This document shows positions 20,571-46,022 of a stretch of DNA of 53,705 nucleotides, piece after piece (positions within the stretch are counted from its first letter, which is position 1; the number at the start of each line of letters is the position of its first letter). The notes beneath the pieces are model-generated. The model worked only from the letters and a program-made list of their open reading frames with translations. It was not told the DNA's origin and searched no databases. The position numbers and the translations under genes are program-made. Source of the stretch: Prorocentrum cordatum (Eukaryota); NCBI GenBank assembly GCA_963575745.1, contig CAUYUJ010000295.1, positions 62,001 to 115,705 on the forward strand, read 5' to 3'.

Positions 20571-20616
<46 letters not shown>

Positions 20617-23600: not shown

Positions 23601-26600
23601 ATTAGGGATAGTCACTAGTCCAAAAACATGCAGAAAGGTCAAAAAGTGTAAGAAAAAACATCGTCCCACAATTAGTTGTGAACTATCTTTTGAGATTCCT
23701 CGTGTAGAGGGACAAGCCCGACTTGATGCTAAGAAGACAGGAAGCCGATGATCTGATGCTGACCCAGACCCCTCGCGCTGTGAAAAATCACGACGGGAGG
23801 TTCCTCGCTATTTTCGGCCCCGGCGGGCCCTTACCTGCCCTCGGGACCGTCAAAAAACGACTCAGGATGAAAAGCCGGTCCCGGGGCAAGGGTCCAGACC
23901 TCGAGGGTTCGCGTCATGAAAAAATCATGACGTCGAGGTCTGGGGAAGAAGGTGGGTTACACATGGCCCAATCTGGCTCAAGTGGGTTACAAGTGCCCTG
24001 AGTGGGGGATCTGTCACTCAACAAAACTCGCGGAGCCCGCTTAGTCCGGATCCTTACCCATCCTAGACAACTACACGACACCAATGACCCGCATATAATC
24101 CAGGTCAGCTCCGATACAACCCGCCTCAGATAACCTGTCCCCCTCAGAAACCCACGGCGATCTCAGTGTGAACAGAAATCGGCGCGGGGATCTCAGTGGT
24201 TGACGTCCCGAGGAAGTAACAACTGCGTGTTACAAACTTTCGACGGTGGATCGGCGCGGATCGGCGCTGGAGACCCCTCCCTGGCGCGCGGGGCGGGCCA
24301 GGGGCGGCGCCGGAGGAGACGCCAAGGGGCTCCAGGTCTGTGCGGATTTCGTGGGTCGGCGCTGGAGCTCCTCTCTGACGCGCGGATCGGGCCAGGGGCG
24401 GCGCTGGAGGAGACGCCAAGGGGTTCCAGCGCCGATCCACGGAATCCGCGCGGAGCTCCGAAAAGTTATGGTTATGCAATCAGTTCTCCCTCTTCGATCA
24501 CAGAGGTTGCCGTCCGCTTGCCATCGCTCCGGCGTCCATTCCTCGTAATTGCACGGTTCGGTGTCGTGCGTGGCTTCTCCCGTTCTCTCGACTTGAAGAT
24601 CCACGATGCTCCAATATGGTTCAGCTGTTCTGGAGCTGGCCTTAGGTAGGGCATGTCCTCCTACAGGCGGATTCCGGACGAACAATTTATCCCACCCCCA
24701 GACATGCTCCAAGAATGTTCAACAATACTAAAAAACATGGCCCCCAGGCTATCTCTCAAAACTATTCCTGAATAGTCCTCCTGTAGAGGGACACGCTCGA
24801 CTTCGCGCTGGCCTCGCCGGCAGGAGTGCACACGCCCGAGCGATGCCAGAGGTGCCGCGGCCTGCCCAGCTCCGGGAACATCGGCTGGTAGCGCAGGGAC
24901 ATCCAGCGCGTGAACGCCGCGCCGCAGCGCAGGTCGATCTCCGACCGCGCCTCCACGGCGTCGGCCAGCCGCGGGTCCGGGGCCCTCAGCGTGGCGCACG
25001 CCCGCAGGAGGTCCTCGCGCGTGAGCGCGGAGAAGACGGCGCGGAACACCTCCGAGGAGGCAAGCAATGCATAGAAACCCACGCTTTGGGGAGGCCCGTG
25101 CAGGCATCCGGGGATCGGCGTTGGATCTCCCCTCCCTGGCGCGCGGAGCGCGCAAGTGGCGGCGCCGGAGGCGGCGCCCGGGGACTCCAGCGCCGATGCG
25201 AGGAACCTGCGCCGACCTCCAAAAGTCTGTGTGTATGCTCATGTTGAGGTCGGGCATGTCCCCCTGCAGGCGAACCTTGAAGGGAAAGTGCAAGAAAGTC
25301 AATCCAAACTCGAGCATAGTCAACATAAGAGCACGCGCAACCGTCCCCAACTCATTTTCTAACCATTCTCGAGTACTCCTCCCGTGGAGGGGCATGCCCG
25401 ACTTGAGCTCATGCAGCTCCGTTCTTCGTCGGCGCCTGCAGGCGGCCGCCCGCCGCCTGCTGACAGACGTCGATCACCTCGAAGGCGATCGCCTCGCCCT
25501 CGCGGTCGCAGTCCAGCCAGAGCACCAGCCAGTCCGCCTGGTGAGCGTTTTCTTCTTCGGCGTTTCGACATTGGGCGCCAGGGGGGGGCGAGGGGGGGGT
25601 CCTGGCTCCAGACCTCTGCTTAGTGCGGCTGTTTGGATCAATGCGTCCCTCGCGGGAGAGACCCCACCTGCTCGGAACAAGCGCCCAAAACAGCCAAGAT
25701 CCACTCCGTGGGGGTGGGGGGAGGGGGGGGGCGAGGGCCCGCGCCGATCGGCAAAACAATGAATAAAAAACCGCTCACCTGGCGGGACAACTGCTTCAAG
25801 TTGCGGTCGATGTCCTCCAAGGCCGGGCTGACGGCGATGTTGCTCAACGGTGATGTTGAGAAAACCAAAGAGTAGGACATCACGAACCACACACTTTCTT
25901 ACACGTTCAATCTGCGAGCGGATCGAGCGTACACGACACAGCGAATTGTAGGAAAGCGCAAGCCACGCATTCCCACCACACCGAAACCTACACCGCCGTT
26001 AGCTACATCGCCATTCACCCGTCTACGGGTCCTGGCAGTCGGGGAGGATGTGGCGCTGCATCGGAGCGGTAAAGAGGCTCGCGGGCGTGCAGGACGACCA
26101 GGACTTAAGCTCGGGCCCGAAGTCGTGCCCGATGAGGTGGCCGCGCACAGCGCTCACGGTCATGCGGCAGTTCGTTCCCCTCAGATTGAAGGGGAACTCC
26201 TGCAAGGATGCACACAATCTGATGAGATAGTATGTCGATGGACAAGATATCTCTTTTCCATCTTGAGCCAAAATGGGTGCACGGAGGAGGGTGTCAGAAT
26301 CACTCCTCCTCGGGCCTGGCCGCCAACCCGGCCAGGCACGACCTACGTCGTACGCGGGCGCGCCCAAGCCGACGCGCCCATCTCATCAGCCAGGCTGCGG
26401 CCATGCCGCGAGCCCCTCACTCCGTCCGGCGCGATCATACCGCCGCCGGCGGAACCTCATCCAGCCCCACAGGTAGCGGAGCATGGATTCGATCCACTCC
26501 ATCACTTGAAGTCCTTCTGAGTCAAACTCGGTGTCCGATCCCAGATGTTGAGCGTCGCCATGTGTCTCCTCAAAAGGGATCCACCCACTCTCTTGGTCAG

Positions 26601-29600
26601 CACGTCCGCGACATTGTTCTTACCAGGAACCGCGGCGATCGAGAGGTCGCCCTTACCCACGCGCTCCTGGATCCACAAGTATCGTGATTGAACATGTCGC
26701 ATCTTCCCGAGACCCCGCCGTTGGACGTGGCCCCGGGCCGCCGATGAATCCGAGGCGAGCTCTACCTTCAGGTCCAGCCCCCAGTCCGCGAAGAGGCTGT
26801 GAAGGCCCAGGCCCACGCTCCCGCCCTTCACCAGGGCGTAGTACTCGCTCTCTCCGCTGCTCAAAGAAACCGTCGACTGCAGATTACTGCCATGCTTGAC
26901 GACATGATGCCCCAGCATCGCCACGAAGCCTCCGGTGCTCTTCCGGGTGACTGCGCAGCCCGCATGATCGGAGTCCACGTACACCCGGATCTTGTCGAAC
27001 ATCTTCTGCTCCGTGAAAACCGTCACCGTGCTAGGATGCCGCTTGAGGTAGCGGCCAACCCTCTTGAGCATGAGCCAACTCGCCTCCGTTGGCGTCTGCA
27101 TGGACCTAGCGAGCGTCTTTGATGCCTCTGCCAAGTCCAGCCTGTCCTGAGACAGGTAGGCCACCCTCATGGTGAGGGATCGGAAGCGCGAAGCTTCCGC
27201 TGCTCCCAACGCCGCCGACTTCGCATCCATCATCTGCTTGTCGGCGCTGCGCTTCTCCATCGGCGTGTCCACGCCGTTGGCCTTGCTGAGACCCAACTCG
27301 TCGATCACGATCTCCGCGTGCCGCTTGTCCGGCTCGATCATCGCATGCCGGCAGGGCCGGCCACCGCCAGGCGGAACTCCCGCACTGACCTCGATGACCC
27401 GATTCAGGAAGACCGCCTGCTTGTCATCGCCCTCGTCGAAGCCTAGGTTCGCAGTCTTCTTGAACTCGTACTTCTTGCCCAGCGTGGCCTCGAAGCTGTC
27501 GATGTCCTGCTGCTGAGCCAGCACCGCGAAGTCGTCGCCGTGCCCCAGCAGCCTCGTCTCGTCCACCTCCTTGTAGAAGACCGCTGGGCACGACACGCCC
27601 GCCTTGTAGCCGTGTTCCTCCAGCAGCTCCGTGTAGTCGCCCTGCCAGATCTTGCTGGCGTCCTGCGTGCCGTACCAGGACTTGAGGAGTAGGCCGCACT
27701 TGTCCTCGCCGTACTCCTTGCGACTCTCCTCCTCCAGCTCTACGAAGATCCTCCGCTGCGCCTTCCCGTAGAAGTGCGCCCTGCTGATGTCGAAGAAGCC
27801 GATCTTGAAATTGCCCGGCTTCCTGCCCTTCTTGCGAAGCGACTCCTGAATGTGGAGCGGTGCTTCCCGCGTCCACGTGACCATCAGCGAGACCAGCGAC
27901 CGCGTGGCCTCCAGAGGAGGCATGGCCGAGAAGACCTCGGACGCCTCCAGCTGCTCGTCGGGGCGCTTCTTCGCCTTGATCTCCTTCACGACGAGCCTGA
28001 TCCTGTAGTTGGGCCTCTCCGCGTCACCCTTGTTCGTGTCGACCCACTTGAGTGGGATGGGCGGACGCCCAGTCTCGGCGAAAGCCTGAGACCTCGGGAC
28101 GATCTCGATCAGCTCCTGCTTCTTGACCCACTCGCGCTCGACCGCGCGAGCCTGGGCCACAAGGCCCGCCTCCAGGTAGCCGCCATTGACGTCGTCCCAG
28201 TAACTCGTCCAGTCCCCGGGCGGCACTGCCGCGTCCACAGGGACTGGGCCCGACTGCTGCACCTGGGCGGTGCTGAGCTCTCCCACGTCATTCAGCGTGT
28301 CCTTGAGCTCCTCCAGCACCGCCTCTACCAACTTCGGTGGATAGACCTTCGCGAACCGCGCGATGCCGCCCACGAGCGTGATGTGGCGATGCCATTCCGC
28401 GCGGCCGTCCACATTGCTGCAAGTGCCCTGCAGCCTCCGGGCTAAGCCTGGATGGTTGGTGACCCATCCGGTCTCCTTGCGCACGAACTCCTCCTGACCA
28501 CTGCGTGGGTTCGTGAGCTTCATGCCCCACCGACACATGGGGCCTTTGACCGTGAAGACTCCTGGATGCGCGACCAGCTCCTTGACGATGTCCTCATTCC
28601 ACGATCGCGCGCTCCAGGGATGCTCATGCAGGAAGTACCTGCCTGGCTTCCTGAGCTGACGCCAGTAGGCGTCGACTGCCACCTTCAGGTGGTGTCTGGC
28701 CTCCTCCATCTCAGCCGCCTCCTGCTCATCGGTCCTGAACTTGGCGCTCAGGCCCCTCAGCAAGCTGAACTTCTCGCATGGAGGGGACCCCGTGAGCAGG
28801 ATGGGATCCATCCGCTCCTGCTGCTTCTCGAGCTCCTTGACATCCTCGGGGCGCCGCAAGTCCCACGGCGCCCCGTCCTCCTTGAGTTCCTCCAGGTCCG
28901 CCGCGAAGCCCGGGCGCAGCTGAAATTCCGCTGCCCGAGCCGAGAACCGATGTGGCGAGTACACCTCGGCCACGTCCACGGCGCCCAGCTGCAACGCCGA
29001 TAGGGCGATGCCATCCACTTCTTCGTCGGCGATGTCCACGCCGACGCTGGCCCAATGGCCGCTGACCTGTTCGCGAACGAGCGGGAGCAACTCCGCCTTC
29101 GCTCTCGTCAGCACTCCGAGCTCAACCAGCTCGATCGACGCCATATCGAGGGCGAGCACCCGCATGTGCCTCCCCTCACTGGCGTTCCACACGACTGCCA
29201 CTCCAGCTGGCAGCTGAGGTCCTTCCGCTGGCGCCGGCTGCGCCGCGAGATCCTCCATGTCCACCGGTACCGGCACGTCTGCCGGCTGTGGATCACCGCG
29301 CTCGAGGGCCTCCGGCACGTCATCCGGGGCCACCTCTGCCAAGCGCTTCAGCCGCGACCTGGCTGCGGTCATGTCGACATCCGCGGCGGCCTCTGCCGCT
29401 CGCGCCGCTCCCGAACTGGAGCTCGCTCCTCCTGAAGGAGCCGCCGCGCCGAAGCCCGGTGCTACCGGCTGGCTCTCTCGCATGCGCGCCGCTGTGGCTG
29501 CCACGGCTGGCGCTGCTGCCGATCGGGCCGCGGCCGGCGCGGCCGATGCCGCTGCCGCCGCTGCCACCGGCTCGGTGATCCTCCGAGCCGTCTTCGGCGG

Positions 29601-32600
29601 AGGGGTCCCTGCCGCGGCCGCTGCCGCTGGTCGGACTCTGGCCTCTTGGCCCTGCCTCCGTTCTCGATACTGGCCGGTCCTTTCCCGGCCTGCCTCCTCC
29701 GCGTCCATCGCTTCGAAGATCCTCTTGCTGCACACCGCGTTGTGCGCGTGGCCAGCCAGCACCCGGCCGTGCTTGGCGATCGAGACGCACCCTGGGCATC
29801 CCGGCGTTGCGCCCAGCCGCTCGACGTCCGCCTTGAGGACGTACATCCTCCTCGGCGCCTGCGGCTGCGGCGACACCACCACAATTGGTGGCGGTCCGAC
29901 CTCTCCAGGTCCGACGATGGCCCGCGGCGCGCTTGCCGCACGCGGAGCCACGTCCCACGGCAGGCCCTTCAGGCCATCCCAGCCCGCCGTGATCCACTTC
30001 TCGCTCTGCGGCAGGCTGCGAAAGCCGACCGCCTTCTTCGCGCCGTCGCTCGTGATGACCATCATCGAGCCGTCGCGCGGGTGGTGGCCGATGTAGCGAG
30101 CCTCCACCATCTGTTCCTCCAGCGCGTTCTTCCTCGCGCGCTCCCCGGCGAACCGCGCCATCAAGCGCTCGCCGAAGAGCGGGACCGGCTTCCTCCACTG
30201 CCGTCCCGTGAGCCGCTGGAGAGCGGTCTTGCCATCCTGGCCGCGCCGGTATCGGTTGATTACCGATGCGGCGTGCTCCGGCAGGTGCGCTAGCACCGGG
30301 TGCTTGTCCTCCACCTTGACGCCCAGCTTGGACTCCAGGTCCATCTTGAGCGCCCGCACCTGCTTCTTAATCTCGCGCACCGTGACCTCGATCTCCCCAT
30401 TGGCCTGATGATCGGCCGGTGCCGACTCCTGGGGAATGGCCTCGAGGCCAGGAACCTCCTCCACCGCACGCCTCTTGACCAACAGGATCGCCGGCTCGCC
30501 GTCGGACTTGTTGACGATCTTCCTGTAGCCCAGGATCCGCAAGAAGCGTGCGAAGAACTTGATGGCGCAGGCGTCGTCGCCCTTCTTCTCCACGAATGTC
30601 GCTGCCATCATCTTCGAGCGCCGATCCCTAAGTACCAGCATCGGCATGGTGTCCGCGTCGTCCTGGCCCATGAAGGCGTAGTCGGACGAGACCACCGGCA
30701 CCGCCGTCTCGTCGTCCTCCGGTGCGCGGAGATGCGGCTGGCCTTGGCCCTTTGCCGCAATACACACGCGACACCAGCTGCGATAAGTCGCGTGTCCCAT
30801 CGCCTCGTGTTCGTCGATCTCCCTCTGAGAGGGCTCATGAGGTGCCTTCAGCACTCTCGGGCGAGCCTCCTCCTCGCCCTCGTCGGCCTGCTGTCCATCA
30901 GGAGCAGCTGGCAAAGCGTCGGCCGCAGCAGCTGCCGCTGGCTGAAAACCCGGCGGTCTCACGTCGGAAGGTCCCGACCCCGCCGCTGCCGCCCCCGCAG
31001 CCGATGCCGCCGGGGGCCGTGGTATTAAGTCCTCCAGTGGGCTTACGCCGAGGGCTGCCTCCTGGGGACTGTCTTCTCGAGGATCTCCAGCAGCTCCTCC
31101 TTCGACTTGCCGCTGAGGAGCTCCACTAGCTCGGACTTCGACTTCGCCGAAAGTCCCTCCTCGAGAGGAGCAACCGAGCCATGTTGGCCCTTCTTGAGGT
31201 AGAAGTTGTAGACGCCCTGCTCGCGATAGACCGGCAGCATCTGGTGCTTCGCCGCCTTCGCCTCCTTCTCGAGCATGCCTACCACGCGCTTGCCGATTGG
31301 GCTCTTCTCGTGGAATATCCAGCCGCCATTGCGACCCAGGAATGAACACTGTCCAGCTCCTGCTGCCTGCCCCACCGAGATCAACGGCTTGTGCACGTTC
31401 GTCACGCGTCCCTTGAGTGCTCGTAGCACTCCGTACTCGTCCTCCGCCTTGAGCTGCAAGCTGCCCTCGTCCGGGACGAGCTCACCACTGGCCGTACGAT
31501 ACGTGCTGCCGTTGCCCTCCATTCCCGTCGGCGGCGCGAAGCTCCGAGGGAATGCTGAGATAGCTGCACCGCTGTCCCAGTTGAACTTCATCCAGTCGTC
31601 CTGCGCGAAGGGGGAGAGGTCGACCGCCGCTATGCCGCGGCCGCTGCCGCTGGCGAGCTCCAGGCAGTCCAAGCTGCCCATGTCCAGAGCGGCGACCTCC
31701 GCTTCAGGCTCCTCCTCCAGGCTGCCTGCCGCCTTGCCGCCGGCCTTGCCGCCGCGGCTACCGACTTTACCACCAGCGCTTGCCCCCGTTGCGGATCCAG
31801 TTCCAGCCCTCGTACTCGATCCCTGCTCTTTCCTCCAGCAGTCGGATGCCTTGTGGCCCCATCTCTCGCAGTTCCGACAGTAGCCGTCGAAGCGCCCGCT
31901 GGTGCTTCGAGGTGCCGTGTGCCCTGAACCACGGCCCGAACCCGTCGGGGATGTGCGGGAGCCTGAGTATGATCCGTTCGTCGATTTGCTCTTCCCCTTC
32001 GGCTCCTGAGTCTTGCCTTTCCCTTTGCTCTTGCCGTCCTTGCCCTTGCCTTTGCCTTTGCCTTTCGGGGCTCCGAACGATCCGACGTCCATGTCGTCCG
32101 GATGATGCGCCCGCGCACGGATCGATGGCTCCTTGATCTTCACGCCGGTCCAAGCCTCTACGATCGTCATTACCTCGTTCAGACTGTCCTGGAACGTTAC
32201 GAGCCGATGCTTGTTGAGTACGAGGTGGTTCTCGATGTCCTGAGGCACGAGCATCTCGAGGGCCGCCATCTTGATATCCTCCGGCAGCTCGGCCAGACCA
32301 TCTTCTCCTTGGCGGCGTTCGTACCTGCCTATCTGCTGGATCCACTTCTCTAAGGCGGACCCCAGCTCGTCCGCGCTGCACTTCGGAGGCGAGATGATCG
32401 ACCTCAGGATCAGCCTCTTCCTCGGGCCTGTCGTCGGATCCCACCTGCGGTGGAGCTTCCGCCAGGCTTCGAGACCGTTCCCGTCGGGGGCGCCCGTCAC
32501 GAGGTCGTTGCTCTCGCTGCCGTCCGCCGTCGTGCTGAGCAGCGCCGCGTACAGCTGGTTGACCTTGGTCTCCAGCTCTGGAACTCCGTCGTGCACCGCC

Positions 32601-35600
32601 CGAGCTCCCTCGATCGTCACGGGGCGTTCGGCTTCGGCTGCCCACCGAAGAACAGGGCGAAAACTCTCTCCGTACACGCCGATCACGTAGTTCTCCATCT
32701 TGCGATTCCAGGCGCCGAACTTTTCTTGGTCGTCGCCCATCGTCGTGGGCTTGCCGATCCCCTTGGTGTCTACGAGACCTTGAACGGCTCCACCCGCGCT
32801 CGTCGCGCCTCTGATCTGCTCGCCCATCCGCTCGATCGCCTGCGGGATTGCCGCGAGGCCTCCTGCCACCTGCTGCTGAAGACGCTGATTCTCGTTCTCC
32901 AGCCTCCTCATCTCGTCGGCTGCCTGACCTATTTGAGCCGCGAACTCCTGCCTCAGCAGTTCGAACTGATGCCGAACCTGCTCGTCCATGTTTGACAGCG
33001 TGTCTCTCGGCGAGCTCCTCCCTGCTCTCAGCTATCTCCTGCCTCGTACGCTCGAGGTCCGTGATCCGTCCTAGGACTTCCTTCTGCGTTCTCTCGACAA
33101 CGTCTGAGGAGTTCTCCGACGGATGGTCCTCGATGTGTGCGAGGTCACGAAGCCTGTCGCCTGCCTCCCTCAAGTCGTGCTTGAACTGGAGCTGCTTGCG
33201 CCTGGTCTCGATCGCTGCGTCGCTCCTCTTGCCGCGCCTGCGGCCACTCTTCCCGGCCCCTGCCGGTTGCTCGGTCGCTGCCGAGCTCGCTGCGGCCGAT
33301 GCCGCCCTCTTCCAGCCTCGAGCTTCCTGCCAGCTCGCCGTGGCGCCCGCGGACGCGGCGCGCCGAGGCCTTGGTGGGGTCGGCAGCAGTGAGTGGCCAG
33401 CTCACGCTACCATGATGAGATAGTATGTCGATGGACAAGATATCTCTTTTCCATCTTGAGCCAAAATGGGTGCACGGAGGAGGGTGTCAGAATCACAATC
33501 GCACTACTGAGCATAACTGCGTCGACACCCATCAGCCCAGGACACCCAAGAGGCTGCCTCGGAGGGGTGTGCCGAGCGAGAGAAACGTTCAGCCAACGTG
33601 AACATGTCAATTCTGATTGCATCCCTCGGAAGAACACATTGACTTGGCCGAATGTTTCCCAGACGGCACCAAGCGAGTAACGATTAATCTTAAGTCGGGC
33701 GTCCCCCTACAGGCAGATTTCGGGCGAAACAAAAGAAAAACAAATAACATACTCAAACATACTTCAAACAAATCAAACACTATCGTCCCCAGACTATTGT
33801 TTTGACAATTTCTGATTTTTCCTCCTGTAGAGGGACACGCCCGACTTAGTATTACTTGCCTTCGCGTCCCCGCGCCGCCCCTTGGTAAGAAGCCGGCTCC
33901 CAGCCCTCGGCCGAGATGCGCATGGGCCTTCGCGCCCCTGCGGTGGCATGGGTCATGTAGGGTTCGGTCGGGCATGTCCTCCTACAGCTCGGGTAGGGGA
34001 TCGCCTACAGAAGTGATTTACCCCAGAATTAGTTTCCCCATCGAATCTACGCAACAATGCGTAGAATTTTCCGCAGATCTACAGACCAGTCGATCTACTT
34101 TTCGTAGATTCGATTGGGAAATCAATTCTGGGATAAATCAATTCTGTAGTCGATCCCCTGTTTGAACAGTCAGAACACATTCAAAAGTACTCAAAAGTAG
34201 TAAAATAACTCGTCTCCAGACAGCTTTTTCATACTGTGTTTGACTATTCCTCCTGTAGAGGGACGTGCCCGACTCAAATGACGACTGGCGGTTCGAAAAA
34301 AAAACAGGGGCAACGATCAGAAGGCCCCCGGCCGCAGGGAAACGTGGTGCAGAGGACGGTCAGAGGCTCTCAGCGGCGTCGACGCCCACGAGCAAGCTCG
34401 ACGAACCCGATGCACTCATCATCGCCCAGGGGGCCGCTGCGTGGCGGGCCCCGCCGGGCATCTCTGCACTGCCCTACTGCATCCGGTATACCCACGAGGG
34501 CCGGCCACGGCGGCGGCAAACCTGAGAACCGACCGACCCGACGGCGACACCGACACCGACCGCAGCTGACAGGCCGCGAGCAGCCTGAACTGGCGCAGCG
34601 ACGCAGCCGCGGCACGATCACCGACCGAACCGAATCGACCGAACGCGACCGACGCTGACGCAGCCGAGCCGACCGAACCGCGGAAACCCTTGTCTGCCTC
34701 ACCGCGCGGACTCCGGCACGTGCATGCCCTGCGCCGTGCACATCCCTCCTCACCCTGCGTCAACCCGCCCTCGGCGAGTCGCAGCCGCCCGATGCCGGAA
34801 TGCCGACGAGAAGCCACGAGAACCCTCGCGAAATCCTCGGACCCCGAAGTCTTGTGCATTCCTCCCTGAGCCCTGAGCCTATCCCTCCCTCGACGGTGCT
34901 CCTGATCTTGAAGGCGGCTAGGGGGTCTGACCTGGCTGGGGCCCCAGCAAAATCGGTCAGGCGGGGGGGATGAGGCCAACTCGGCTCAGAGTCGGTCCCC
35001 AGAGCCCTCCCGGGAGGAGGGGGAGGAGGAGGGGGAGGAGGAGGAGGAGGAGGAGGAGGAGGAGGAGGAGGAGGAGGAGGAGGGAGGAGGAGGAGGAGGA
35101 GGAGGAGGAGGAGGAGGAGGAGGAGGAGGAGGAGGAGGAGGAGGAGGAGGAGGAGGAGTCTGGTGCATGCGTCCTGTCGCGCTGGATCCGCTGTTCGCAG
35201 CCCCGGGGCCCGCGGGCGGCCCTCGGAGGCCGCAGACGGCAACAGCAGCTTCCCGGGCCCAGGGCCTCGAGCCTGCCCGCCCTTCCTGCCCGTCCATGAG
35301 AAGCCTTCCACAGGAGGCCCAAGCGTGAAACCCCAGGGCGTCCGTTGCCTTCTGGCGTGGGCGCGTCACGCGTACCATAAGCAGAGCCATCGACACCCGA
35401 GGAACGCATGGGCACCCTGGAGGCAGGCGGGGTGCTTCTTGGCGCGGGCCCCCACTGCTGCAGTGCTGGGCCACCTCGGACCCTTGGACGGCTCCAGCCC
35501 CGCTCGGCCCCCCCCCCGCGAGGGCTCCGACACGTGCATGCCGTGCGCGTCCCTCCTCTGATGGGCAAGCTTTCCACCACTACTACCACTATGTAGGACG

Positions 35601-37136: not shown

Positions 37137-37534
37137 CACACCGGCGCATCAGCTGCACCGCCCAAGGAAAAGGCTACGGGGAGGGGAGGGTGCAGGGGAG
37201 GAGCCTCAGACGCAACGAAAAAATGTCACGAATTCCGGCCCCAAAATGCGATGACACGGAGGCCGAGGACGGACGATGATGTAACCAGCACCTTTTGCTA
37301 CATAACATCCTGGTGCAATCTACATTGTCTCATAAACTGCGGATTGGGAGTGTGCGCCACCGCGCGCTCCCCCTCTTTGGGCCCGGCTCCGCGCCCACCA
37401 CGGGGTCGCGCCGTTCCAGAGGGAGCAAAGAGGTAAGCCGGTAGCGGCGGCGCCACGTCCGCCGGCGGCCCCAAGGGGAGGCGCACACCGCCAACCCCCA
37501 GAACCGGGCACCAAGGCCCTACCGAATACCCCCC
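37137..37534. repeat. Split direct repeat A (398 bp); second copy 37931-38328
   Basis: Copies offset by 794 bp; no mismatch noticed on manual reading. Confidence 0.93.
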
Positions 37535-38330
37535 CCTTTGGTGGCTTGCCCAAGAAATCCTCACCTCACAGGGCGGGCTGGGCGGGACAAGCGTGCGACC
37601 ACACACCTGTCCTAGAGCCAAAATGTCAACGGACCGTGCTATGCATCATGCTGCCGGTCCGCATGCTGCTACTCTATGCTGCCCTACTCGCGTTCAACTG
37701 GCACTGAAGCATGAGTAGGTTAGCACTGCCAAAAGCACAAGAACACAGGGAACCGTTTTCCGGTCACCTGGGCGTTTCCCCGCGGATCCGCACATTTTCG
37801 GTGTACCGGTCCATCCGTGCATTCTGGGGCAGAGAGGCTGCACTCTTCACACATCCCTGCAACCCCTCCTCCCACTCACCCCCACCCGCAGCAGGGCTTC
37901 GCTGTGACTGCGCACACGCGCGTGCTTCACCACACCGGCGCATCAGCTGCACCGCCCAAGGAAAAGGCTACGGGGAGGGGAGGGTGCAGGGGAGGAGCCT
38001 CAGACGCAACGAAAAAATGTCACGAATTCCGGCCCCAAAATGCGATGACACGGAGGCCGAGGACGGACGATGATGTAACCAGCACCTTTTGCTACATAAC
38101 ATCCTGGTGCAATCTACATTGTCTCATAAACTGCGGATTGGGAGTGTGCGCCACCGCGCGCTCCCCCTCTTTGGGCCCGGCTCCGCGCCCACCACGGGGT
38201 CGCGCCGTTCCAGAGGGAGCAAAGAGGTAAGCCGGTAGCGGCGGCGCCACGTCCGCCGGCGGCCCCAAGGGGAGGCGCACACCGCCAACCCCCAGAACCG
38301 GGCACCAAGGCCCTACCGAATACCCCCCGC

Positions 38331-40670
38331 TTACGCCACGGTGGCGTTCCCAAACTTGCTACACTTACGGCATCTCTGGTGCACTGGAGTTGCAGCCCAC
38401 GTCGATGAAGTCGCTGGCACGCCGCCACAGATGGCCCAGTTCCAGCCGCAGTGCGTGGAGGCCACGCTCGCAGCCACGTGCAGCTTGCCGTCGACGCACT
38501 GGACGTACGTGGGGGGGCCCTGCCCCGCCAGCACCGCCACATCTCCCTGCAAGAGTGCAACGTCCTCCCGCAATGTCTTCAAGGTGCGCTCCGCTGCCTC
38601 CGCGGCCGGGGTGATCTCGGCCAGGAGCCTGGGGAGCAGCTCCTCCGAGAGGGCGCCGACGTGGCACTCGACGATGGACTTCACGCTCTGCTGGGAGACG
38701 CCTCCCATGATCTTGGCCATCTTGCCCGCTTCCTGCAACAGCCTGTCGTGGACGTCGTCGAGTACAAGCCCGTCTGGTTCTTCCACGCGCCGGGAGATGC
38801 CGCCACCTCGGGAGCCGAGGGCGGCGTCCCTCACGTACCGCAGCACCGCCGAGCTCCCCCACCTCCCAAAGATCTGCACCACGGAAATCGGGTAGACCGC
38901 GGCCATGCGCTGCGCCCCCGCCACCCGCGCAGAGTGGCCCGTGATGTGCAAGTCGTCGACGCCCATTAGCTCCACCACCTCACGATAGAACTTGACAGTG
39001 CTGTCCTTGGACACGGGCTGCCCGAACCCGTCCACGATGAGGGGCCACTGCTCTTCGAGAATCCACCGGCCACCCAGCCAGCAGCGCCCTTGCTCGTCGC
39101 GCCGCGCCTTGGCCCTGGCATCCAAGGAGGCGCCGACCACGCGGCGCAGGGCTGCCACCGGGCATAGGGGCGCAGGGCACGCACAGCCAAGGCAGCGCTT
39201 CTTTCCAAGCGCCCGCACGTCTGCTTTGGAGGCGGGCAACAGCCACTCCGCGCAGCCGCATGGCCCCTCCTCCTCGCCCATGGGGTCGAAGAAGACAATG
39301 TGCTGGACCATCGCGGCGGAGGACTCGATCTCGCGCAACATCCAAGCTGCTGACGCGACCATGACATCGACGCCCGCCGCTGGCCATGCATCCCGGCTCC
39401 CGCGCGAAATTTGGTCCAAAGCGCCTTGACTTCGCAACCGATCGATGGGCAATGGGTCCGCCTGCCGTGCCGGGCCCATGCCCCTCTCCAGCGACCGGAC
39501 CGCATCGCTGCAGGCCAGTTTCAACTGGTCCGTCCACGGGCTCCCCAACAGGACGTGCTGGCGCTTCATCGCCGATATGTAGGCGGCCCCACTCCGGTAG
39601 CAGCCGCGCCTCAAGAGCGCCCCCGCGAGCTCCACCAACTCCGCACTTAGTGGGAACGGGGCGAGCTTCCGCGCACTGCAGCGGTCGTACCACCATTGGA
39701 GTCGGGACCTATGCGAATCTCTGCTTGTCTTCGCGAAGCGGGCGGGCCTCAACGCCTCCACGGCGTTGGCATCTTCGGCAAAGGCGTCCAACCCCTTGGC
39801 CGCGCCCTTCCTGCACGGCCGCTGCGCAGGAGCCAGGTCGTGCCAAGGGTGCCCGTCGCCCTCGCCGCCCCCTCCCGGAGCGCGGGCGCCGCGTACCTTC
39901 CTGCGCTTCCAGCTGGGCGCAGGGCAGCCTTTCCTGCGCGCGACCTGCTCGGGGACCGCCGCAGAGACGATGGACGCGTCGTCGTCGCTCGACTCCGATC
40001 CCGACTCGCCCTCTGCCGGGCCATCCACGCCCGCAGAGGAGTTGCGCCCCGTCGCGGGGAGGTGCCGCCCCCGAGCGCCGCGCTCCGCCAAGGCCTGCTG
40101 CCTCCTGGCGAGCGCGGACGCCTGCAAGCGAGACGCGACGCCAGGCTGACAGGCCGCCGGGCCCTCACCAGCGCCTTCCAGCTCGGCCCTGCGAGCGCTC
40201 ACTTCTGACGCAGTCGCGGCAGCCCGGGCGCGCGCCAGCGCGGATCCTGGCGCCGTCGCTCGACCCTCGCCACCGCCATCACTGCCCCCCGCCTGCGCCG
40301 ACAGGGCCAAGGCCCTGACAGAGGCGAGATGCCTTGCGGTGGCTGCAGATGCCATGGCCACGAAACGGCTGCAGCTGCTGGATCGGGCGCCGCCCGATGC
40401 TCGAGGCAAATGGGTACGGATGCCCTGCCGACCAGCAGGGGGAGGTGGGAGGGGGAAAGGCCGGCGCGCACAGCACGGCCGATCCTCGCGGGCAAAACCA
40501 TGCCCACGCGGCAGCACCAAATAACACGCGAGGAGCCCTGCCGACCAGCAGGGGGGCGGGAGGAAGAGCCGGCAGGCATGCGCAGCACGGCCGGAATACG
40601 GGGCACGACCATGCCCAGGGTGGCGACGAGCACTACCATGCCCATAATTTTTTTCAACCATTCCACCCAT
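38331..40670 (-). CDS. DIRS tyrosine recombinase (true start may be the internal Met near 40355)
   Basis: Catalytic R-K-H-R-W-Y set: MLREIE, SKAD, TGHSAR, GRWGS...LRY. Confidence 0.88.
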   Translation of the reverse strand: MGGMVEKNYGHGSARRHPGHGRAPYSGRAAHACRLFLPPPCWSAGLLACYLVLPRGHGFAREDRPCCARRPFPLPPPPAGRQGIRTHLPRASGGARSSSCSRFVAMASAATARHLASVRALALSAQAGGSDGGGEGRATAPGSALARARAAATASEVSARRAELEGAGEGPAACQPGVASRLQASALARRQQALAERGARGRHLPATGRNSSAGVDGPAEGESGSESSDDDASIVSAAVPEQVARRKGCPAPSWKRRKVRGARAPGGGGEGDGHPWHDLAPAQRPCRKGAAKGLDAFAEDANAVEALRPARFAKTSRDSHRSRLQWWYDRCSARKLAPFPLSAELVELAGALLRRGCYRSGAAYISAMKRQHVLLGSPWTDQLKLACSDAVRSLERGMGPARQADPLPIDRLRSQGALDQISRGSRDAWPAAGVDVMVASAAWMLREIESSAAMVQHIVFFDPMGEEEGPCGCAEWLLPASKADVRALGKKRCLGCACPAPLCPVAALRRVVGASLDARAKARRDEQGRCWLGGRWILEEQWPLIVDGFGQPVSKDSTVKFYREVVELMGVDDLHITGHSARVAGAQRMAAVYPISVVQIFGRWGSSAVLRYVRDAALGSRGGGISRRVEEPDGLVLDDVHDRLLQEAGKMAKIMGGVSQQSVKSIVECHVGALSEELLPRLLAEITPAAEAAERTLKTLREDVALLQGDVAVLAGQGPPTYVQCVDGKLHVAASVASTHCGWNWAICGGVPATSSTWAATPVHQRCRKCSKFGNATVA

Positions 40671-40739
40671 ACGCCACTGCAGACACGAAGGCGGGCTCCG
40701 GCAGCGCTCACAGCATGCCCAATGCCGCCCGCCAGCGGC

Positions 40740-43700
40740 CTAAACTGACCGCGCGCCTGCACCCGGAGCGGCACTCACAGCGCGCTCCCCCTCGCCAGCA
40801 CGACCATGCTGGCGACGATGCCCCTGTGCCAACCCTCCGGGGCGACCACCCCCGAGGAAGGCCCAAGGCTGGCGGCGGACCGGCCGCGAGGGCACAATGC
40901 CCTGGAGCACCTGCGGGATCGCGGAGCCCTCGCCCACCCTGGAGAGGTCGTCGGCCACGTCGTTGTCTTCTGACCAGTAATGCGCGGCCGTCAGGTCGCT
41001 CATGCCTACCCCGAGCTCCAGCTGCGCCTCGATGACGATGGCATTGACGAGCGGATGCCTCGCCTTCCGGCGCACGACGCTCTGCAGGGCGCCGGAGGCG
41101 TCGCCGCGGAGCCCCAGCTGGCCCTCGGCATCTTTGATGAACGTGGCCCACGTGGTGATGGCCAGCAGGAGGGCGTACGCCTCCCACAGCGGCTGGCTGC
41201 CCGGATCCTCCTTCAGGGCGCCTGTGGCGATCTCGTCGGTGGCGTCCCAGACGGTGTAATAGAAACCGTGGTAGTGTTTGCCACCATCGCGAGAGAACCA
41301 TGCGCCGCTGCCTGTGGTGCTCGCGTCGAAGCCGATGATGAACTCCAGAGGGCGCTCGTCGACGCAGAAGGCCCTTGGAAGGCTGACCAGCCGCCGCTCT
41401 GAAAAATGGATTATCCAAGATAGCGCCAGAGATACCCTTTCGCGCCGAAGGACGGCCGCCGACTCACCAGCAGCCGGCGGAGCGGACACAGCCGCCCAGA
41501 TCATTTGGGCGAAACCTCGGAGGGCAGGGGTGACGGAACCTACCCAAGAGGCCAGCCCCGCGAACGCCCTCAGATCGCGGCGCTGGATCAGCGGCTGCTC
41601 GACGAGGCGCAGGGCCCCGCTGAGGAGTTTCTCCGCCTGGTCCTCCGCGACGGTGATGAGAACGGCGTGGATGCGGTCGCCCTTGAAGGCATATTTCATT
41701 TCTGCGCCGAGCCACGTGACCGACTCGCCGTGCTTGCCCTTCGTCCACGCCATGCGGAAACCGAGAGCCTCCCACAGCAGGAGCAACGTTAAGACAGCCA
41801 TCGATCGCTCCTCGGGCTCACCGACGAGGACAACCAGTGGGTCGTCGACGTAGCACTGCAAGTGGGCTTCCGGTGCGGGCACTGTGGCCGCAGACGCCCG
41901 CATCAGCGCTGCTGCAACCCTGCCCCGCACCAGGGGCCCGGCGATATGGCCAAACATGACCGTGAGGTACTGGAAGAACCCCCACTTGCCGTCGACGCGG
42001 GCGGAACCGCAGAGGTACCTTCGCTCCCCTGGGTGTACGCGGAGCTGCTTGAAAGCGTCCGTGAAGTCCAGGACCAGGATGCCGACCCGGCCGCGGCGCT
42101 GGGCGGCGCGCCCGGCCGCCCGGAGGGACTGCACGGCGTCGTACAGCCTGGGCAACACTACCCGCTCTGGGATCCTCGCCAAGGCGTTGACCCCGCTACG
42201 GCGGAGATCGTGGATAAGCCGGATCTTCAGCTTCCCGGACGCCCTCAACTTTGCAAGAACAGCCACCTTGGACAAGTGGCATTTCCCGGCAAGCTCTTCC
42301 AATTCCTCCAACGTCTCCCGCCAGATCAGGTATCCAGCGTCCAACTCGGCCTTCAACGCAGCGTCGGCCTCGGCCGCGTACTCGTCATAGGACGCGTAGT
42401 TGTGGAACCCCCACGCGGCAGGCCACGGCGCCAGCTCGGTCCGCGCCAACCCCGCGTACTTGTAGGGCTTGTCCATGGCTGGGAACACGCCGCAGACCGG
42501 GATGTCCTGGTCGATGCCCATGGGGGTCGCGCCGGCGGCCCACTGCCCAAGCACGACGTCTGGGCCCCCAGCCGCCGTCAGCATGGCCGCCAGGAGGTGC
42601 GCCTGCAGGCCCGATGGGGCGACGCCGATCGGCGCGGCGCGGCTGGCCCATAGGGCCGCCAGGGCTTCGCGGGCGCGCCCCACCACCGCCGCCGGAAAGC
42701 CTGAGTTCTGCTCCGTCCCAAGCAACTCCATGACCGCGCGGACCTCCGGCAGCACTGCCCCGTCTTGGCCAGCGATGATGGGCGCCAAGGCTGCTCTGAT
42801 GTCCCTGCCGACGCCGGGCCACCCAGGGACGCGGGCCACCGACAGGTGCGGATCCCGCAACCCCCCCAGCGCCATCTTATTGGCTGCCTCCCGCTGGGCC
42901 TTCCGGCTGGGCGCCTGCAGTGGGTCGCGGGCGCCGTGCTCGTCGAAGGTAACCGTCGCAATCGACGGCGGCGACGAGCGGTCAGCTGCAAATGCCCGGG
43001 CCAATGCCTCGCATAGGTCCTGCGGGTACTCCGCGGCCAGCTCGATCCTGCAGCACCGCGACCCGTCCGGCCTCGTCGCGAGCCCCTCCAGGGGAAGGTG
43101 AGGCGGATGCACCGGCGGCCCCGGGCATCGCACGCCGAGCTGTCGGAGCCACGGGGCGTTCGTCACCCACTTCGTCCCCTTCCTGTACTGGCCTCCGAAG
43201 CAGCACTGGTCCCCCTTGACGACGAAGACGCCCGGCAACAAGACGAGCAACCGGTACTCCTCGAACTCCCACATCAACGACCTCTCCGGGCCCTCGATGG
43301 AGAAGAAGCCGCCGGCCTGGATCTGCACCTTCGCCAAGCGCGCCGTGCGGACGGCCCAGGCGTTGTCCTCGGTGACGCACCGGGGCCTGCTGTGCCGCGT
43401 TCCGAGGCCGTAAGGCTGCTCCGTGCTCCGCAACACGACCACCCGGGCATGCAGTCTACGCCGTCGAGCCCGCACGAACGTACGGTATGGTGGTGCGAAG
43501 TGGAACCATCGATAACTGCGGCGGCGGATCCGCCGGGCGAGGTCGCGGAACTCTGACAATGCCAACATGTCGAAACCGCCGCTCCTCGCCCGACCAGGGC
43601 TCCTCGCGGTGAAGGTGTCCACCTTGACGCCAAGCTTCCGGACTGCAGTGGACAACCCTGCGGCGCCGACAGCCACCTCGGCGAAGTGCTGTCTGAAGGG

Positions 43701-43964
43701 CTGCTGCGGCATCTCTCCATCGGTCCGGGCACCCAGATCCTTCGGTACCCCTCGCAGGCGCTTCGCCGCCAGCCGCTCGCCCCAGGAGCGGCGGCGGATC
43801 CTCGGTGCGGCGAGCTGCCCGGCCGCGGGCGCCGCGCCTCCCGACCGCGGACTCCCGCGGGGGCGGCCAGGGCGCGGCTGGGCGCGATCCCGAGGAGCGC
43901 CCGTGGGCGCGAGGGGCGAACAGGAGCGGTCATCGAGACGAGGCGCGGGGACATTCCGCCGCAC
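40740..43964 (-). CDS. DIRS Pol: degenerate C5 MTase-like domain - reverse transcriptase - RNase H
   Basis: MTase-like: FAEVAVGAAG, HFAPPY, FSIEGP, DQCCFG, RKGT. RT: LIHDLR, LDFTDAF, MFG, YVDD. RH: FDAS, WEAYA, RGDA, NDVADDLSR. Confidence 0.88.
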   Translation of the reverse strand: MRRNVPAPRLDDRSCSPLAPTGAPRDRAQPRPGRPRGSPRSGGAAPAAGQLAAPRIRRRSWGERLAAKRLRGVPKDLGARTDGEMPQQPFRQHFAEVAVGAAGLSTAVRKLGVKVDTFTARSPGRARSGGFDMLALSEFRDLARRIRRRSYRWFHFAPPYRTFVRARRRRLHARVVVLRSTEQPYGLGTRHSRPRCVTEDNAWAVRTARLAKVQIQAGGFFSIEGPERSLMWEFEEYRLLVLLPGVFVVKGDQCCFGGQYRKGTKWVTNAPWLRQLGVRCPGPPVHPPHLPLEGLATRPDGSRCCRIELAAEYPQDLCEALARAFAADRSSPPSIATVTFDEHGARDPLQAPSRKAQREAANKMALGGLRDPHLSVARVPGWPGVGRDIRAALAPIIAGQDGAVLPEVRAVMELLGTEQNSGFPAAVVGRAREALAALWASRAAPIGVAPSGLQAHLLAAMLTAAGGPDVVLGQWAAGATPMGIDQDIPVCGVFPAMDKPYKYAGLARTELAPWPAAWGFHNYASYDEYAAEADAALKAELDAGYLIWRETLEELEELAGKCHLSKVAVLAKLRASGKLKIRLIHDLRRSGVNALARIPERVVLPRLYDAVQSLRAAGRAAQRRGRVGILVLDFTDAFKQLRVHPGERRYLCGSARVDGKWGFFQYLTVMFGHIAGPLVRGRVAAALMRASAATVPAPEAHLQCYVDDPLVVLVGEPEERSMAVLTLLLLWEALGFRMAWTKGKHGESVTWLGAEMKYAFKGDRIHAVLITVAEDQAEKLLSGALRLVEQPLIQRRDLRAFAGLASWVGSVTPALRGFAQMIWAAVSAPPAAGESAAVLRRERVSLALSWIIHFSERRLVSLPRAFCVDERPLEFIIGFDASTTGSGAWFSRDGGKHYHGFYYTVWDATDEIATGALKEDPGSQPLWEAYALLLAITTWATFIKDAEGQLGLRGDASGALQSVVRRKARHPLVNAIVIEAQLELGVGMSDLTAAHYWSEDNDVADDLSRVGEGSAIPQVLQGIVPSRPVRRQPWAFLGGGRPGGLAQGHRRQHGRAGEGERAVSAAPGAGARSV

Positions 43965-44063
43965 TGCAGAGCATTCAGGGGCTGGGCTACTGCCGCCGTG
44001 GCAAGATGCCTCCGCCCCTTCACTCGCCCCGCATCCCTCGCCAGAGCAGGCCGGGGATTGGCC

Positions 44064-45624: not shown

Positions 45625-45678
45625 GGCAGCCCGCGCAGCGCAGATACAGATCTTGAGACAACAGGGCCCCCCCCGCTT

Positions 45679-46022
45679 ACAAGCGTGCGACCACACACCT
45701 GTCCTAGAGCCAAAATGTCAACGGACCGTGCTATGCATCATGCTGCCGGTCCGCATGCTGCTACTCTATGCTGCCCTACTCGCGTTCAACTGGCACTGAA
45801 GCATGAGTAGGTTAGCACTGCCAAAAGCACAAGAACACAGGGAACCGTTTTCCGGTCACCTGGGCGTTTCCCCGCGGATCCGCACATTTTCGGTGTACCG
45901 GTCCATCCGTGCATTCTGGGGCAGAGAGGCTGCACTCTTCACACATCCCTGCAACCCCTCCTCCCACTCACCCCCACCCGCAGCAGGGCTTCGCTGTGAC
46001 TGCGCACACGCGTGTGCTTCAC
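45679..46022. repeat. Split direct repeat B (344 bp); second copy 37587-37930; contains a DinoSL-like 22-mer
   Basis: Copies offset by 8092 bp; one mismatch noticed (37921 C vs 46013 T). Confidence 0.93.

Follow-up and report, generated by a model that had tools for sequence, protein, structure and literature searches.

A copy of the host spliced leader in the long terminal repeats of a copia-type retrotransposon of Prorocentrum cordatum and its possible use as a host-donated R region

Why would a long terminal repeat (LTR) retrotransposon carry a copy of the spliced leader (SL) of its host inside its LTRs, and could such a copy take part in reverse transcription? The question is raised by a stretch of 53,705 nucleotides of the Prorocentrum cordatum genome (contig CAUYUJ010000295.1, positions 62,001 to 115,705; hereafter, the window). 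The minus strand of the window reads TCCGTGCACCCATTTTGGCTCAAG, followed by ATGG, from 33478 to 33455, and the identical 24 nt are found from 26285 to 26262. When this motif is compared with the dinoflagellate SL (DinoSL; DCCGTAGCCATTTTGGCTCAAG, as printed in PMC7245778), the final 15 nt are exact (15/15) and the 5′ TCCGT matches as well, with GCAC in place of AG; the first-pass annotation of this DNA had read the motif in the same way, and the reading holds for both LTRs. In the literature, we found no report of an SL copy built into an LTR in such an arrangement.

The element that carries the two copies (Table 1) has the hallmarks of Ty1/copia LTRs, namely, direct TG...CA repeats that are 100% identical and a 5-bp target duplication, and the earlier description of an 83-bp LTR with the motif at both ends of the element is thus confirmed. 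In the pol product, an integrase-like N-terminus is followed by a DNMT-fold domain, a reverse transcriptase (RT) of the RVT_2 family, and an RNase H-like C-terminus. The assignment to copia, already made in the first-pass annotation, is borne out by the RT (Pfam RVT_2, PF07727; E = 4.2e-11, with a score of 43.4 bits that exceeds the cut-off of 31.6). Integrase-like motifs (H..H..C..C and D, D, E-like) can be recognized by eye in the N-terminal third of pol (P0001), N-terminal of the RT. A search of pol for the Pfam family rve gave no match even at E <= 5; close homologues of pol carry the UniRef name 'Integrase catalytic domain-containing protein'. No tRNA gene that could be compared with the PBS-like site was found within the window. 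The identical LTRs, the target site duplication, and the uninterrupted gag and pol reading frames mark the element as a recent, intact copy. It also belongs to a multi-copy family: 1041, 380, and 59 contigs from the sequencing runs of three organisms align to it, and at least 20 Prorocentrum cordatum proteins match pol at 90-100% identity, many of them at 95-100%.

Table 1. Features of the two retroelements in the window (positions count from the first letter of the window)
Feature	Position	Strand	Basis or remark
Copia-order LTR retrotransposon, complete, 7,276 bp	26220..33495	-	LTRs, target site duplication, PBS-like and PPT-like sites, gag and pol
5′ LTR, 83 nt, TG...CA	33413..33495 (33495->33413)	-	100% identical to 26220-26302
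3′ LTR, 83 nt	26220..26302 (26302->26220)	-	identity to 5′ LTR
Target site duplication GATTG, 5 bp	33496..33500 (5′ side); twin 26215-26219	.	flanks both LTRs
PBS-like site, 16-mer, TGG first, adjoining the 5′ LTR	33397..33412	-	position
Polypurine tract GAGGAGGAG, immediately preceding the 3′ LTR	26303..26311	-	position
gag ORF, 648 aa, one CCHC knuckle	31043..32989	-	weak zinc-knuckle matches only
pol ORF, 1,615 aa	26502..31349	-	-1 frame relative to gag; 307-nt overlap
U3-like head of LTR, 17 nt: CTGAC (branch-point-like), then pyrimidine-rich run, no AG	33479..33495	-	putative branch point and tract
AAAAG, LTR positions 46-50	33446..33450; copy that would be used, in 3′ LTR, 26253-26257	-	candidate poly(A) site
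DinoSL-derived motif, 5′ LTR positions 18-41: TCCGT + GCAC + CCATTTTGGCTCAAG	33455..33478	-	sequence match
DinoSL-derived motif, second copy, 3′ LTR	26262..26285	-	proposed R partner of trans-spliced SL
DIRS-like retroelement, A-coding-B-A-B, unrelated to the copia element	37137..46022	-	repeats; architecture as described for SymbioDIRS (PMC5890265)
Repeat A	46022->45679 and 37930->37587	-	344 nt; copies differ by 1 nt
Repeat B	38332->37931 and 37538->37137	-	402 nt; copies differ by 1 nt
DinoSL look-alike TCCGTTGACATTTTGGCTCTAG, 19/22, repeat A1 positions 298-319, upstream of ORF1	45704..45725	-	
DinoSL look-alike TCCGTTGACATTTTGGCTCTAG, repeat A2	37612..37633	-	second copy

A short motif might resemble the leader by coincidence or through an assembly artefact, and its brevity is all that speaks for such a reading, which we regard as hardly credible. 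When up to 2 mismatches were allowed, the window contained 5 matches to the 15-mer, including the two exact LTR copies, whereas 100 shuffles averaged 0.13 matches and never reached 5; moreover, both LTRs have the motif, and it recurs in contigs from independent runs and, at the protein level, in a sister copy. Conservation across the family was judged indirectly, from two sister LTRs. One of these is represented by an ENA protein (P0125) that corresponds, at 78% identity, to an antisense ORF of the 3′ end of a sister element and retains 22 of the 24 LTR-encoded residues, whereas the adjoining 3′ UTR has indels. The sole change within the mimic hits its aberrant centre: the replacement of Val by Leu translates into C to G or C to A at the position that removes the internal AG, and G would restore this AG. 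The other sister LTR comes from a contig of run X3 in which U5 has diverged, yet the aligned part extends from GGAAA across the mimic (with loose ends at 26255 and 33432). Because these two LTRs keep the motif and a look-alike also occurs in a DIRS-like element of the window that is unrelated to the copia element (see below), chance can be set aside; at the level of sequence, these comparisons show that the LTR motif is a true copy of the host spliced leader, residing in a young, multi-copy family of the copia type.

No shorter relatives of the antisense ORF were found, and a scan of metagenomes with the U5 start ATGGAAAAGAGANATCTTGT as the anchor returned 15 loci, none of them related. Scans of viral contigs gave no matches to the PBS junction, the pol protein, or alignment A1, and 7 matches, none related, to a 17-mer spanning the junction of the SL and U5. 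Neither gag nor pol had a tblastn match among the 146 IMG/VR loci that contain the 15-mer, and no contigs from one RNA run (X21, chosen by guess) aligned to the element. The single match in a scan of genome contigs lies in a bacterial MAG and was judged to be a chance hit. Derivation from a fragment of an SL RNA gene was rejected as well: a GT donor is missing, with ATGG and the U5 portion of the LTR coming next after the mimic. An Rfam search of the window gave no match. Nor does the LTR contain the usual truncated relic form, in which AG directly precedes the 15-mer; here, the 15-mer is preceded by TCCGTGCAC, without AG.

The surroundings of the mimic suggest what it might do. LTR positions 1-41 contain a single AG, at 40-41, and this AG ends the mimic. 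CTGAC is found at LTR position 6, pyrimidines occupy 11 of the 14 positions from 9 to 22, TTTT lies at positions 30-33, and AAAAG begins 5 nt past the end of the mimic. In dinoflagellates, AAAAG/C has been reported at the exact poly(A) site, and the acceptor sites are AG, with no clear consensus beyond these two nucleotides, according to the account in PMC2488372. CTGAC, the pyrimidine run, and AAAAG are all short and could have arisen by chance. The U3-like part, judged by its sequence, is far too short to resemble a promoter. An 8-bp hairpin is predicted to form from the 3′ half of the SL and the following ATGG (z = -2.77).

Our tentative proposal, which may be right although we stop short of calling it probable, is that the LTR mimic serves as a trans-splice acceptor and that the 5′ R is provided by the host SL and pairs with the copy of the mimic in the 3′ LTR. 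The LTR would have no promoter of its own, and RNA would enter the element from upstream through read-through transcription; this is assumed because the orientation of host genes could not be read from the flanking ORFs (in a Pfam search of 11 of these, none reached a family cut-off, with 10 matching no family and one giving a sub-threshold match to SR-25). The 17-nt head, with CTGAC and the pyrimidine run, would provide the branch point and the tract, and the AG that ends the mimic would be the trans-splice acceptor, such that the RNA would be cut at this AG and would gain the authentic 22-nt SL. The mature RNA would then start with SL-ATGGAAAAG... and would be almost collinear with the DNA starting at LTR position 18, whereas the 3′ LTR in the same RNA would retain the mimic, with polyadenylation possibly occurring at the AAAAG beyond it. 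Minus-strand strong-stop DNA, primed at the PBS, would end in anti-SL, which at first-strand transfer would pair with the 3′ LTR mimic over 23 contiguous identical nt (CCATTTTGGCTCAAGATGGAAAA). The 5′ R would thus come in trans from the host, leaving the element with only the 3′ copy. The loss of the internal AG, changed to GCAC, would keep splicing at the terminal AG, thereby preserving the register.

This mechanism is burdened by an extra assumption that it needs because GCAC is present in both LTRs: either the RT would halt at about SL position 8 or trimming would remove the mismatched tip, such that LTR positions 18-26 would be copied from the 3′ LTR. The shared GCAC shows that an authentic SL was not the source of SL positions 1-7 in the most recent cycle and that the 5′ third of the mimic was inherited, a point absent from the first-pass annotation. 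In Polarella, SL positions 2 and 8 are the preferred starts of full-length cDNAs, as reported in PMC7245778, which is compatible with an RT stop that would leave exactly the 15 nt that are exact in the LTR. Two mechanisms had been offered originally, namely, transcription starting on a self-encoded SL and trans-splicing at this AG with the SL becoming part of R. The anatomy of the LTR favours the latter over the former, given the 17-nt head with CTGAC and pyrimidines but without another AG, the AAAAG after the mimic, and the short U3.

The inherited GCAC is accommodated with no further assumption if the SL copy is placed in U3 as a relic core promoter, with TTTT(G) acting as the dinoflagellate TATA-equivalent and the SL having no part in strand transfer; transcription would then start some tens of nucleotides downstream, inside the LTR, and R would be confined to a short segment close to the end of the LTR. 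The TTTT is in place, and Song et al. (as set out in PMC5585692) proposed that TTT(T/G) of DinoSL relics is the promoter that keeps retrogenes alive; 'RNA-dependent DNA replication' is enriched among the relic-bearing genes described in the same paper. However, a start ~25-35 nt past the TTTT would fall downstream of the only A-run of the LTR, the AAAAG, and R would be left with at most ~20 nt and without a poly(A)-type motif. Such a promoter would also leave unexplained the whole 15-mer, the 5′ TCCGT, the retention of the terminal AG, and the fact that two unrelated elements have lost the internal AG, and we consider it unlikely. It is conceivable, if rather unlikely, that the leader is inert: an SL-capped element RNA would have been reverse-transcribed once, trapping the leader, now functionless, at the U3/R border. 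Relic SLs are common in dinoflagellate genomes (as described in PMC7245778 and PMC5585692), the family is young, with identical LTRs and many near-identical proteins, so that the exactness of the 15 nt does not call for selection, and the DIRS-like copy has already decayed to the extent of 3 mismatches. Yet, with the AG lying behind a pyrimidine tract, any trans-splicing at this site would automatically make the relic R; the sister at 78% identity keeps the LTR part better than the adjacent UTR; and, in both elements, the internal AG is gone but the terminal AG remains, an outcome with a joint random chance of about 0.02 by hand count.

A self-encoded leader, with transcription starting at or near LTR position 18 and producing an SL look-alike 5′ end without trans-splicing, would not be unheard of. 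In the PCP gene of Amphidinium, an SL-like sequence is encoded in the genome precisely at the splice site, such that a message could have the leader without being trans-spliced (as described in PMC2488372), and giant-virus bins encode full DinoSL copies before genes, such that this strategy exists in nature. However, the viral copies are directly preceded by a conserved AT-rich motif and retain the AG (ACCGTAG precedes the 15-mer in 81 of the 107 unique sites), whereas the LTR offers only 17 GC- and pyrimidine-rich nt upstream, with no promoter-like feature, and the cap-proximal part of its mimic is altered by GCAC; we deem this route very unlikely.

The second retroelement in the window combines A-coding-B-A-B split repeats, an RT, and a tyrosine-recombinase-like ORF, as expected of DIRS-like YR retroelements. 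Its Pol matches RVT_1 at 26.7 bits, under the cut-off of 29.6. ORF3 itself has no Pfam or PHROGs match; it has 2,120 relatives, and among the 35 that were scanned, Phage_integrase was detected in 16 at E <= 0.01, with one above the cut-off. SymbioDIRS-Dnmt3, as described in PMC5890265, shares the A-coding-B-A-B arrangement, the DNMT-like stretch in Pol, and the separate tyrosine-recombinase-like ORF, and the portions of that description used here report no SL look-alike in repeat A. The look-alike, for which 100 shuffles gave an expectation of 0, ends 25 nt before the end of repeat A, and, as in the copia LTR, the internal AG is destroyed and the terminal AG is retained. A wider possibility, doubtful as it is, would be that at least two classes of dinoflagellate retroelements, copia LTR and DIRS-like, use as R an SL that the host donates in trans at every transcription, with the DNA keeping only the 3′ partner and the acceptor.

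Retroelements tied to the SL system are known from trypanosomatids, hosts that transcribe polycistronically, where they include SLACS/CZAR, located in the SL RNA genes, and VIPER/SIRE. These elements either integrate into SL genes or provide acceptor sites, and we know of none that uses the SL as an R repeat. Cer1 of C. elegans, a Ty3/gypsy element (PMC3315495), resembles the copia element in being an LTR retrotransposon in a trans-splicing host and in having an SL1 acceptor in its RNA, but SL1 is present only on a 2.4-kb subgenomic RNA, the 8-kb genomic RNA escapes trans-splicing, and there is no SL copy within the LTR. The relic DinoSL retrogenes (as described in PMC7245778 and PMC5585692; the former summarises the model of Slamovits and Keeling) share with the LTR motif a DNA-encoded leader copy upstream of a coding region, an origin in reverse transcription of SL-capped RNA, and the 15-nt 3′ part that is kept. 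Each of these relics, however, is found in front of a single host gene, and renewed splicing at the internal AG gives SL + 15-nt tandems. The LTR motif instead occurs in the two LTRs of an autonomous element; it retains the 5′ TCCGT but not the internal AG, and its end is formed by the only AG that follows a pyrimidine tract. In the Amphidinium PCP gene, too, the look-alike ends at the leader junction, such that spliced and unspliced RNA would be indistinguishable, but this is a host gene in a tandem array that is not mobile, and the account in PMC2488372 implies no role in reverse transcription. SmTCL of Symbiodinium microadriaticum (PMC5776459) is likewise a recently expanded, LTR-flanked dinoflagellate element of the Ty1-copia order; the portion of the published account used here mentions no leader motif in the LTRs. 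Proteins of Symbiodinium species match pol at 42-48% identity.

Dinoflagellate genomes have been shaped by massive retroposition of SL-capped mRNAs, with the responsible RT and the route left open in the accounts of PMC5585692 and PMC12014239, and SL-relic retrogenes make up a large share of dinoflagellate genes. Should the host leader act as R, this would be the first concrete molecular link between an LTR element and SL-mRNA retroposition. It would show how an LTR element persists where trans-splicing replaces every mRNA 5′ end and would explain LTRs that are too short for a promoter: promoter-less, 83-bp LTRs would ride on the polycistronic transcription of the host. The first-pass annotation had suggested that an RT transferring on SL homology could jump onto any SL-capped host mRNA, and, as stated, this fails topologically, given that strong-stop DNA jumping to the 5′ SL of a host mRNA would anneal at its extreme 5′ end, where no template remains. 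The homology could be used only in the reverse switch, in which a host cDNA ending in anti-SL would invade the mimic in the 3′ LTR of the element; such invasion could couple retrotransposition to the SL-relic retrogenes.

Outside the two retroelements, the window contains a match to the 15-mer at 23968-23982 on the plus strand, with 2 mismatches and without a preceding CCGTAG, which we take to be due to chance. Weaker fuzzy matches to the DinoSL are scattered over the window at 48975, 40400, 15343, and 5346.

The two LTRs of the copia element are identical 83-nt copies that begin with TG, end with CA and read TGATTCTGACACCCTCC / TCCGTGCACCCATTTTGGCTCAAG / ATGGAAAAGAG...CATCA. The middle block closely resembles the spliced leader of dinoflagellates, 22 nt in length (DinoSL or SL; printed as DCCGTAGCCATTTTGGCTCAAG in PMC7245778): the 15 nt at its 3' end (the 15-mer) match exactly (15/15), the first 5 nt (TCCGT) agree as well, and AG is replaced by GCAC. 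With up to two mismatches allowed, the 15-mer has five matches in the window; 100 shuffles averaged 0.13 matches and never came to five. Re-reading of the sequence along with this shuffle control bears out the first-pass annotation, which had placed an SL-like motif in both LTRs. The motif is a true copy of the leader, incorporated in the LTR of an active, young and multi-copy copia family. The single AG within LTR positions 1-41 lies at 40-41, that is, at the end of this SL mimic. The LTR head contains CTGAC at position 6, pyrimidines occupy 11 of the 14 positions from 9 to 22, and TTTT and AAAAG are found at positions 30-33 and 46-50, respectively. In the predicted RNA fold, CCAUUUUG pairs with CAAGAUGG over the junction between the mimic and the downstream sequence (MFE -35.9 kcal/mol, z = -2.77, a stability matched by 3 of 200 shuffles), forming an 8-bp hairpin.

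This is a complete copia-order retrotransposon, 7,276 bp long, recently inserted and flanked by the target duplication listed in the table. A PBS-like 16-mer starting with TGG adjoins the 5' LTR, and GAGGAGGAG lies just before the 3' LTR; searches of the window detected no tRNA and no Rfam match. The LTRs are unusually short, the typical length being about 100 bp to several kb. Both gag (648 aa, one CCHC knuckle) and pol (1,615 aa; Pfam RVT_2 at 43.4 bits, cut-off 31.6) are open. Pol overlaps gag and is shifted to the -1 frame, which suggests that Gag-Pol might be produced by frameshifting or splicing; in P. cordatum, relatives annotated at ~2,200 aa appear to fuse gag and pol. Integrase-like motifs are discernible by eye N-terminal of the RT, and rve was not detected in pol by Pfam. 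Among the flanking ORFs, Pfam recognized no host genes around the insertion. Repeat families of ~45-55 nt on both sides of it share a palindromic-looking core, ..GTCGGGC..GTCCC.., and are MITE-like or satellite-like.

Features of the copia element, the DIRS-like element and their surroundings
Feature	Position	Strand	Description
LTR copies	33495->33413 and 26302->26220	-	5' and 3' LTR
SL mimic	33478->33455 and 26285->26262	-	middle LTR block; sequence reading
Predicted hairpin	33451-33469	-	3' half of SL mimic and adjoining ATGG
Target duplication	33500-33496 and 26219-26215		GATTG, both LTR flanks
gag/pol overlap	31043-31349	-	307 nt, ORF coordinates
DNMT-fold domain	28305-28985; pol residues 789-1015	-	between integrase-like part and RT; structure prediction, pLDDT 96.4
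Antisense ORF	26232-26687	+	opposite copia 3' end; residues 1-24 LTR-encoded
DIRS-like element	46022 to 37137	-	split direct repeats, order A-coding-B-A-B; three ORFs
Repeats D9, D10, D14	21000-25400 and 33690-34280		both sides of copia insertion
Other repeats	19427-20432; 20390-20886; 35012-35740; 50200-51830		77-nt tandem array; 9-15-nt periodic repeats; long (GGA/TCC)n tracts; 10-11-nt CCCAAGA(C/T)GG-like periodic repeats

The RT/RNase H part of pol has 426 relatives at E <= 0.001 from 8,000 scored candidates; the best 20 of the 426 are Prorocentrum cordatum proteins (each an 'unnamed protein product') with 90-100% identity, followed, at 42-61% identity, by proteins from ENA and JGI assemblies, Symbiodinium and Amphidinium. 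A fraction of 0.37-0.54 of the sampled words of the element is present in eight DNA runs, and contigs matching it at >= 85% likeness number 1041, 380 and 59 in runs of three organisms. From these identities and contig counts, it follows that the family is multi-copy and young. Scans of metagenome, genome and viral contigs yielded no related DNA. Among the 20 gene models of P. cordatum that come closest, four (P0003, P0006, P0009 and P0022) fuse host-type domains (PF14555, Sec7, PPPDE, Glyco_hydro_2_N) to the copia pol, which points to either faulty annotation or transcripts that are read-through or chimeric.

Indirect evidence on the mimic comes from two sister copies. The antisense ORF has a single relative in the database search (P0125, from ENA; 78% identity) and no others. 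This protein retains 22 of the 24 LTR-encoded residues, including all those derived from CCATTTTGGCTCAAGATG, and carries indels within the stretch derived from the 3'-UTR. Its sole change within the mimic is Val to Leu (codon 26277-26279), which in the element sense turns the C after GCA into G or A; the G variant would yield AGCCATTTTGGCTCAAG, a 17-nt match to the SL. A contig from sequencing run X3 aligns from 26255 across the mimic and has a loose end where the U5 side is too divergent, with a counterpart loose end at 33432, so that at least one subfamily has an identical SL/ATGGAAA junction next to a U5 that has diverged. A second hairpin predicted in U5 (GAGAUA/UAUCUC) seems to retain its stem ends in this diverged variant. 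Judging from these copies, a thin sample (n = 2), the mimic apparently does not drift freely.

A second, unrelated class of retroelements in the same window shares the leader-copy feature. The DIRS-like element has the same architecture as described for SymbioDIRS (PMC5890265), with a single nucleotide difference between the two A copies (344 nt) and likewise between the two B copies (402 nt). ORF2 shows a weak RVT_1 match (26.7 bits, under the cut-off of 29.6). ORF3 has no family match of its own in the family searches and 2,120 relatives; Phage_integrase was detected at E <= 0.01 in 16 of the 35 relatives scanned, in one case above the cut-off. Repeat A contains, at positions 298-319 of 344, that is, 25 nt from the repeat end and with ORF1 downstream, the sequence TCCGTTGACATTTTGGCTCTAG, which agrees with the DinoSL in 19 of 22 positions and has no matches in 100 shuffles. 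As in the copia LTR, the internal AG of the SL is lost (here replaced by TG) and the terminal AG is retained.

The best-fitting explanation, which we advance tentatively from the LTR anatomy and which needs one extra assumption, is that the LTR mimic serves as a trans-splice acceptor and that the host donates the 5' R to the copia element. In dinoflagellates, AG serves as the acceptor and AAAAG/C is found at poly(A) sites (PMC2488372). Given the LTR anatomy and a 17-nt head that appears too short to resemble a promoter, we read this head as the acceptor. RNA reading in from upstream would be cut at the AG at 40-41 and gain the authentic SL, so that the 5' end of the mature copia RNA would be the SL followed by ATGGAAAAG... 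The 3' LTR of the same RNA would retain the mimic, and the RNA may terminate at AAAA|G. Strong-stop DNA primed at the PBS would end in anti-SL and anneal to the mimic in the 3' LTR over 23 identical contiguous nt, as against an R of 8 nt if the mimic were missing. Loss of the internal AG would keep splicing at the terminal AG and preserve the register. The same logic could apply to the DIRS-like element, in which the cDNA has to bridge the RNA 5' end and the internal A copy. In the main text of papers covered by full-text searches, we found no description of a leader copy inside an LTR. In C. elegans, the genomic RNA of Cer1 is reported to escape SL1 trans-splicing (PMC3315495).

The main difficulty for the host-donated R is the GCAC that is present in the 5' and 3' LTRs alike. 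In LTR replication, the R of both progeny LTRs comes from strong-stop DNA; were an authentic SL copied to its end, the progeny would read TCCGTAG, so that positions 18-26 must have been templated by the 3' LTR in the last cycle. This origin requires that RT stops near SL position 8 or that the mismatched tip is removed. Full-length cDNAs of Polarella preferentially begin (about 70%) at positions 2 and 8 of the SL (PMC7245778), which fits such a stop, though it is not a test of it. Alternatively, the genomic RNA of the copia element may undergo no trans-splicing. The inherited GCAC would also be accounted for if the mimic lay in U3 and functioned as a core promoter through TTT(T/G), the motif of relic SLs that Song et al. 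proposed as a promoter (PMC5585692); however, this would leave an R of at most about 20 nt, downstream of the sole A-run, and we consider it unlikely. Slightly less doubtful is an inert SL relic carried along in a young family. That the element encodes its own leader is improbable given that nothing upstream of the mimic is promoter-like and its cap-proximal part is altered. Chance resemblance is excluded.

The suggestion in the first-pass annotation that strong-stop DNA could jump onto SL-capped host mRNAs, as a source of retrogenes, fails on topology: anti-SL strong-stop DNA anneals only at the extreme 5' end of a host mRNA, where no template is left, so the jump makes no retrogenes. The reverse switch, from a host cDNA at the SL of its template to the mimic in the 3' LTR of the element, is conceivable; under it, host cDNAs would be expected that start with the LTR head of 17 nt followed by the mimic.

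Leader copies are also found in viral DNA: the 15-mer scan identified at least 147 IMG/VR loci. Among the matches listed, AT-rich loci contain 84 unique sites with the complete CCGTAG plus 15-mer, ACCGTAG precedes the 15-mer in 81 of 107 unique sites, and a conserved AT-rich motif lies immediately 5' of the leader copies; at these listed sites, the first ATG is a median of 49 nt downstream, and an ORF of >= 100 aa is opened in 70 of the 84. Two bins behind these loci both encode NCLDV capsid proteins above the cut-off, and the exact DinoSL 21-mer occurs 67 times in the 951-kb bin and 11 times in the 623-kb bin (both strands; none for the reversed control). A literature search found no description of DinoSL copies in giant viruses. 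This looks like true leader mimicry, with a viral promoter followed by a self-encoded host leader.

The copia pol contains an additional domain, the predicted fold of which is closest, among solved structures, to C5 DNA methyltransferases (DNMT3A/3B/1; E about 6e-6 to 1e-5, TM 0.4-0.5). Pfam did not detect this domain. Of 120 copia relatives, 116 have it, proteins from Symbiodinium and Amphidinium among them, although PMC5890265 describes the copia elements of Symbiodinium as having no DNMT domain. Its PPC and HE.P motifs do not vary, and a glycine-rich motif I is not evident. A 75-aa stretch with 40% identity (E = 4e-8) is common to the N-terminal portion of ORF2 in the DIRS-like element (42900-43964, -) and the DNMT-fold region of the copia element (28320-29402, -); therefore, two unrelated retroelement classes of this genome bear a related module.
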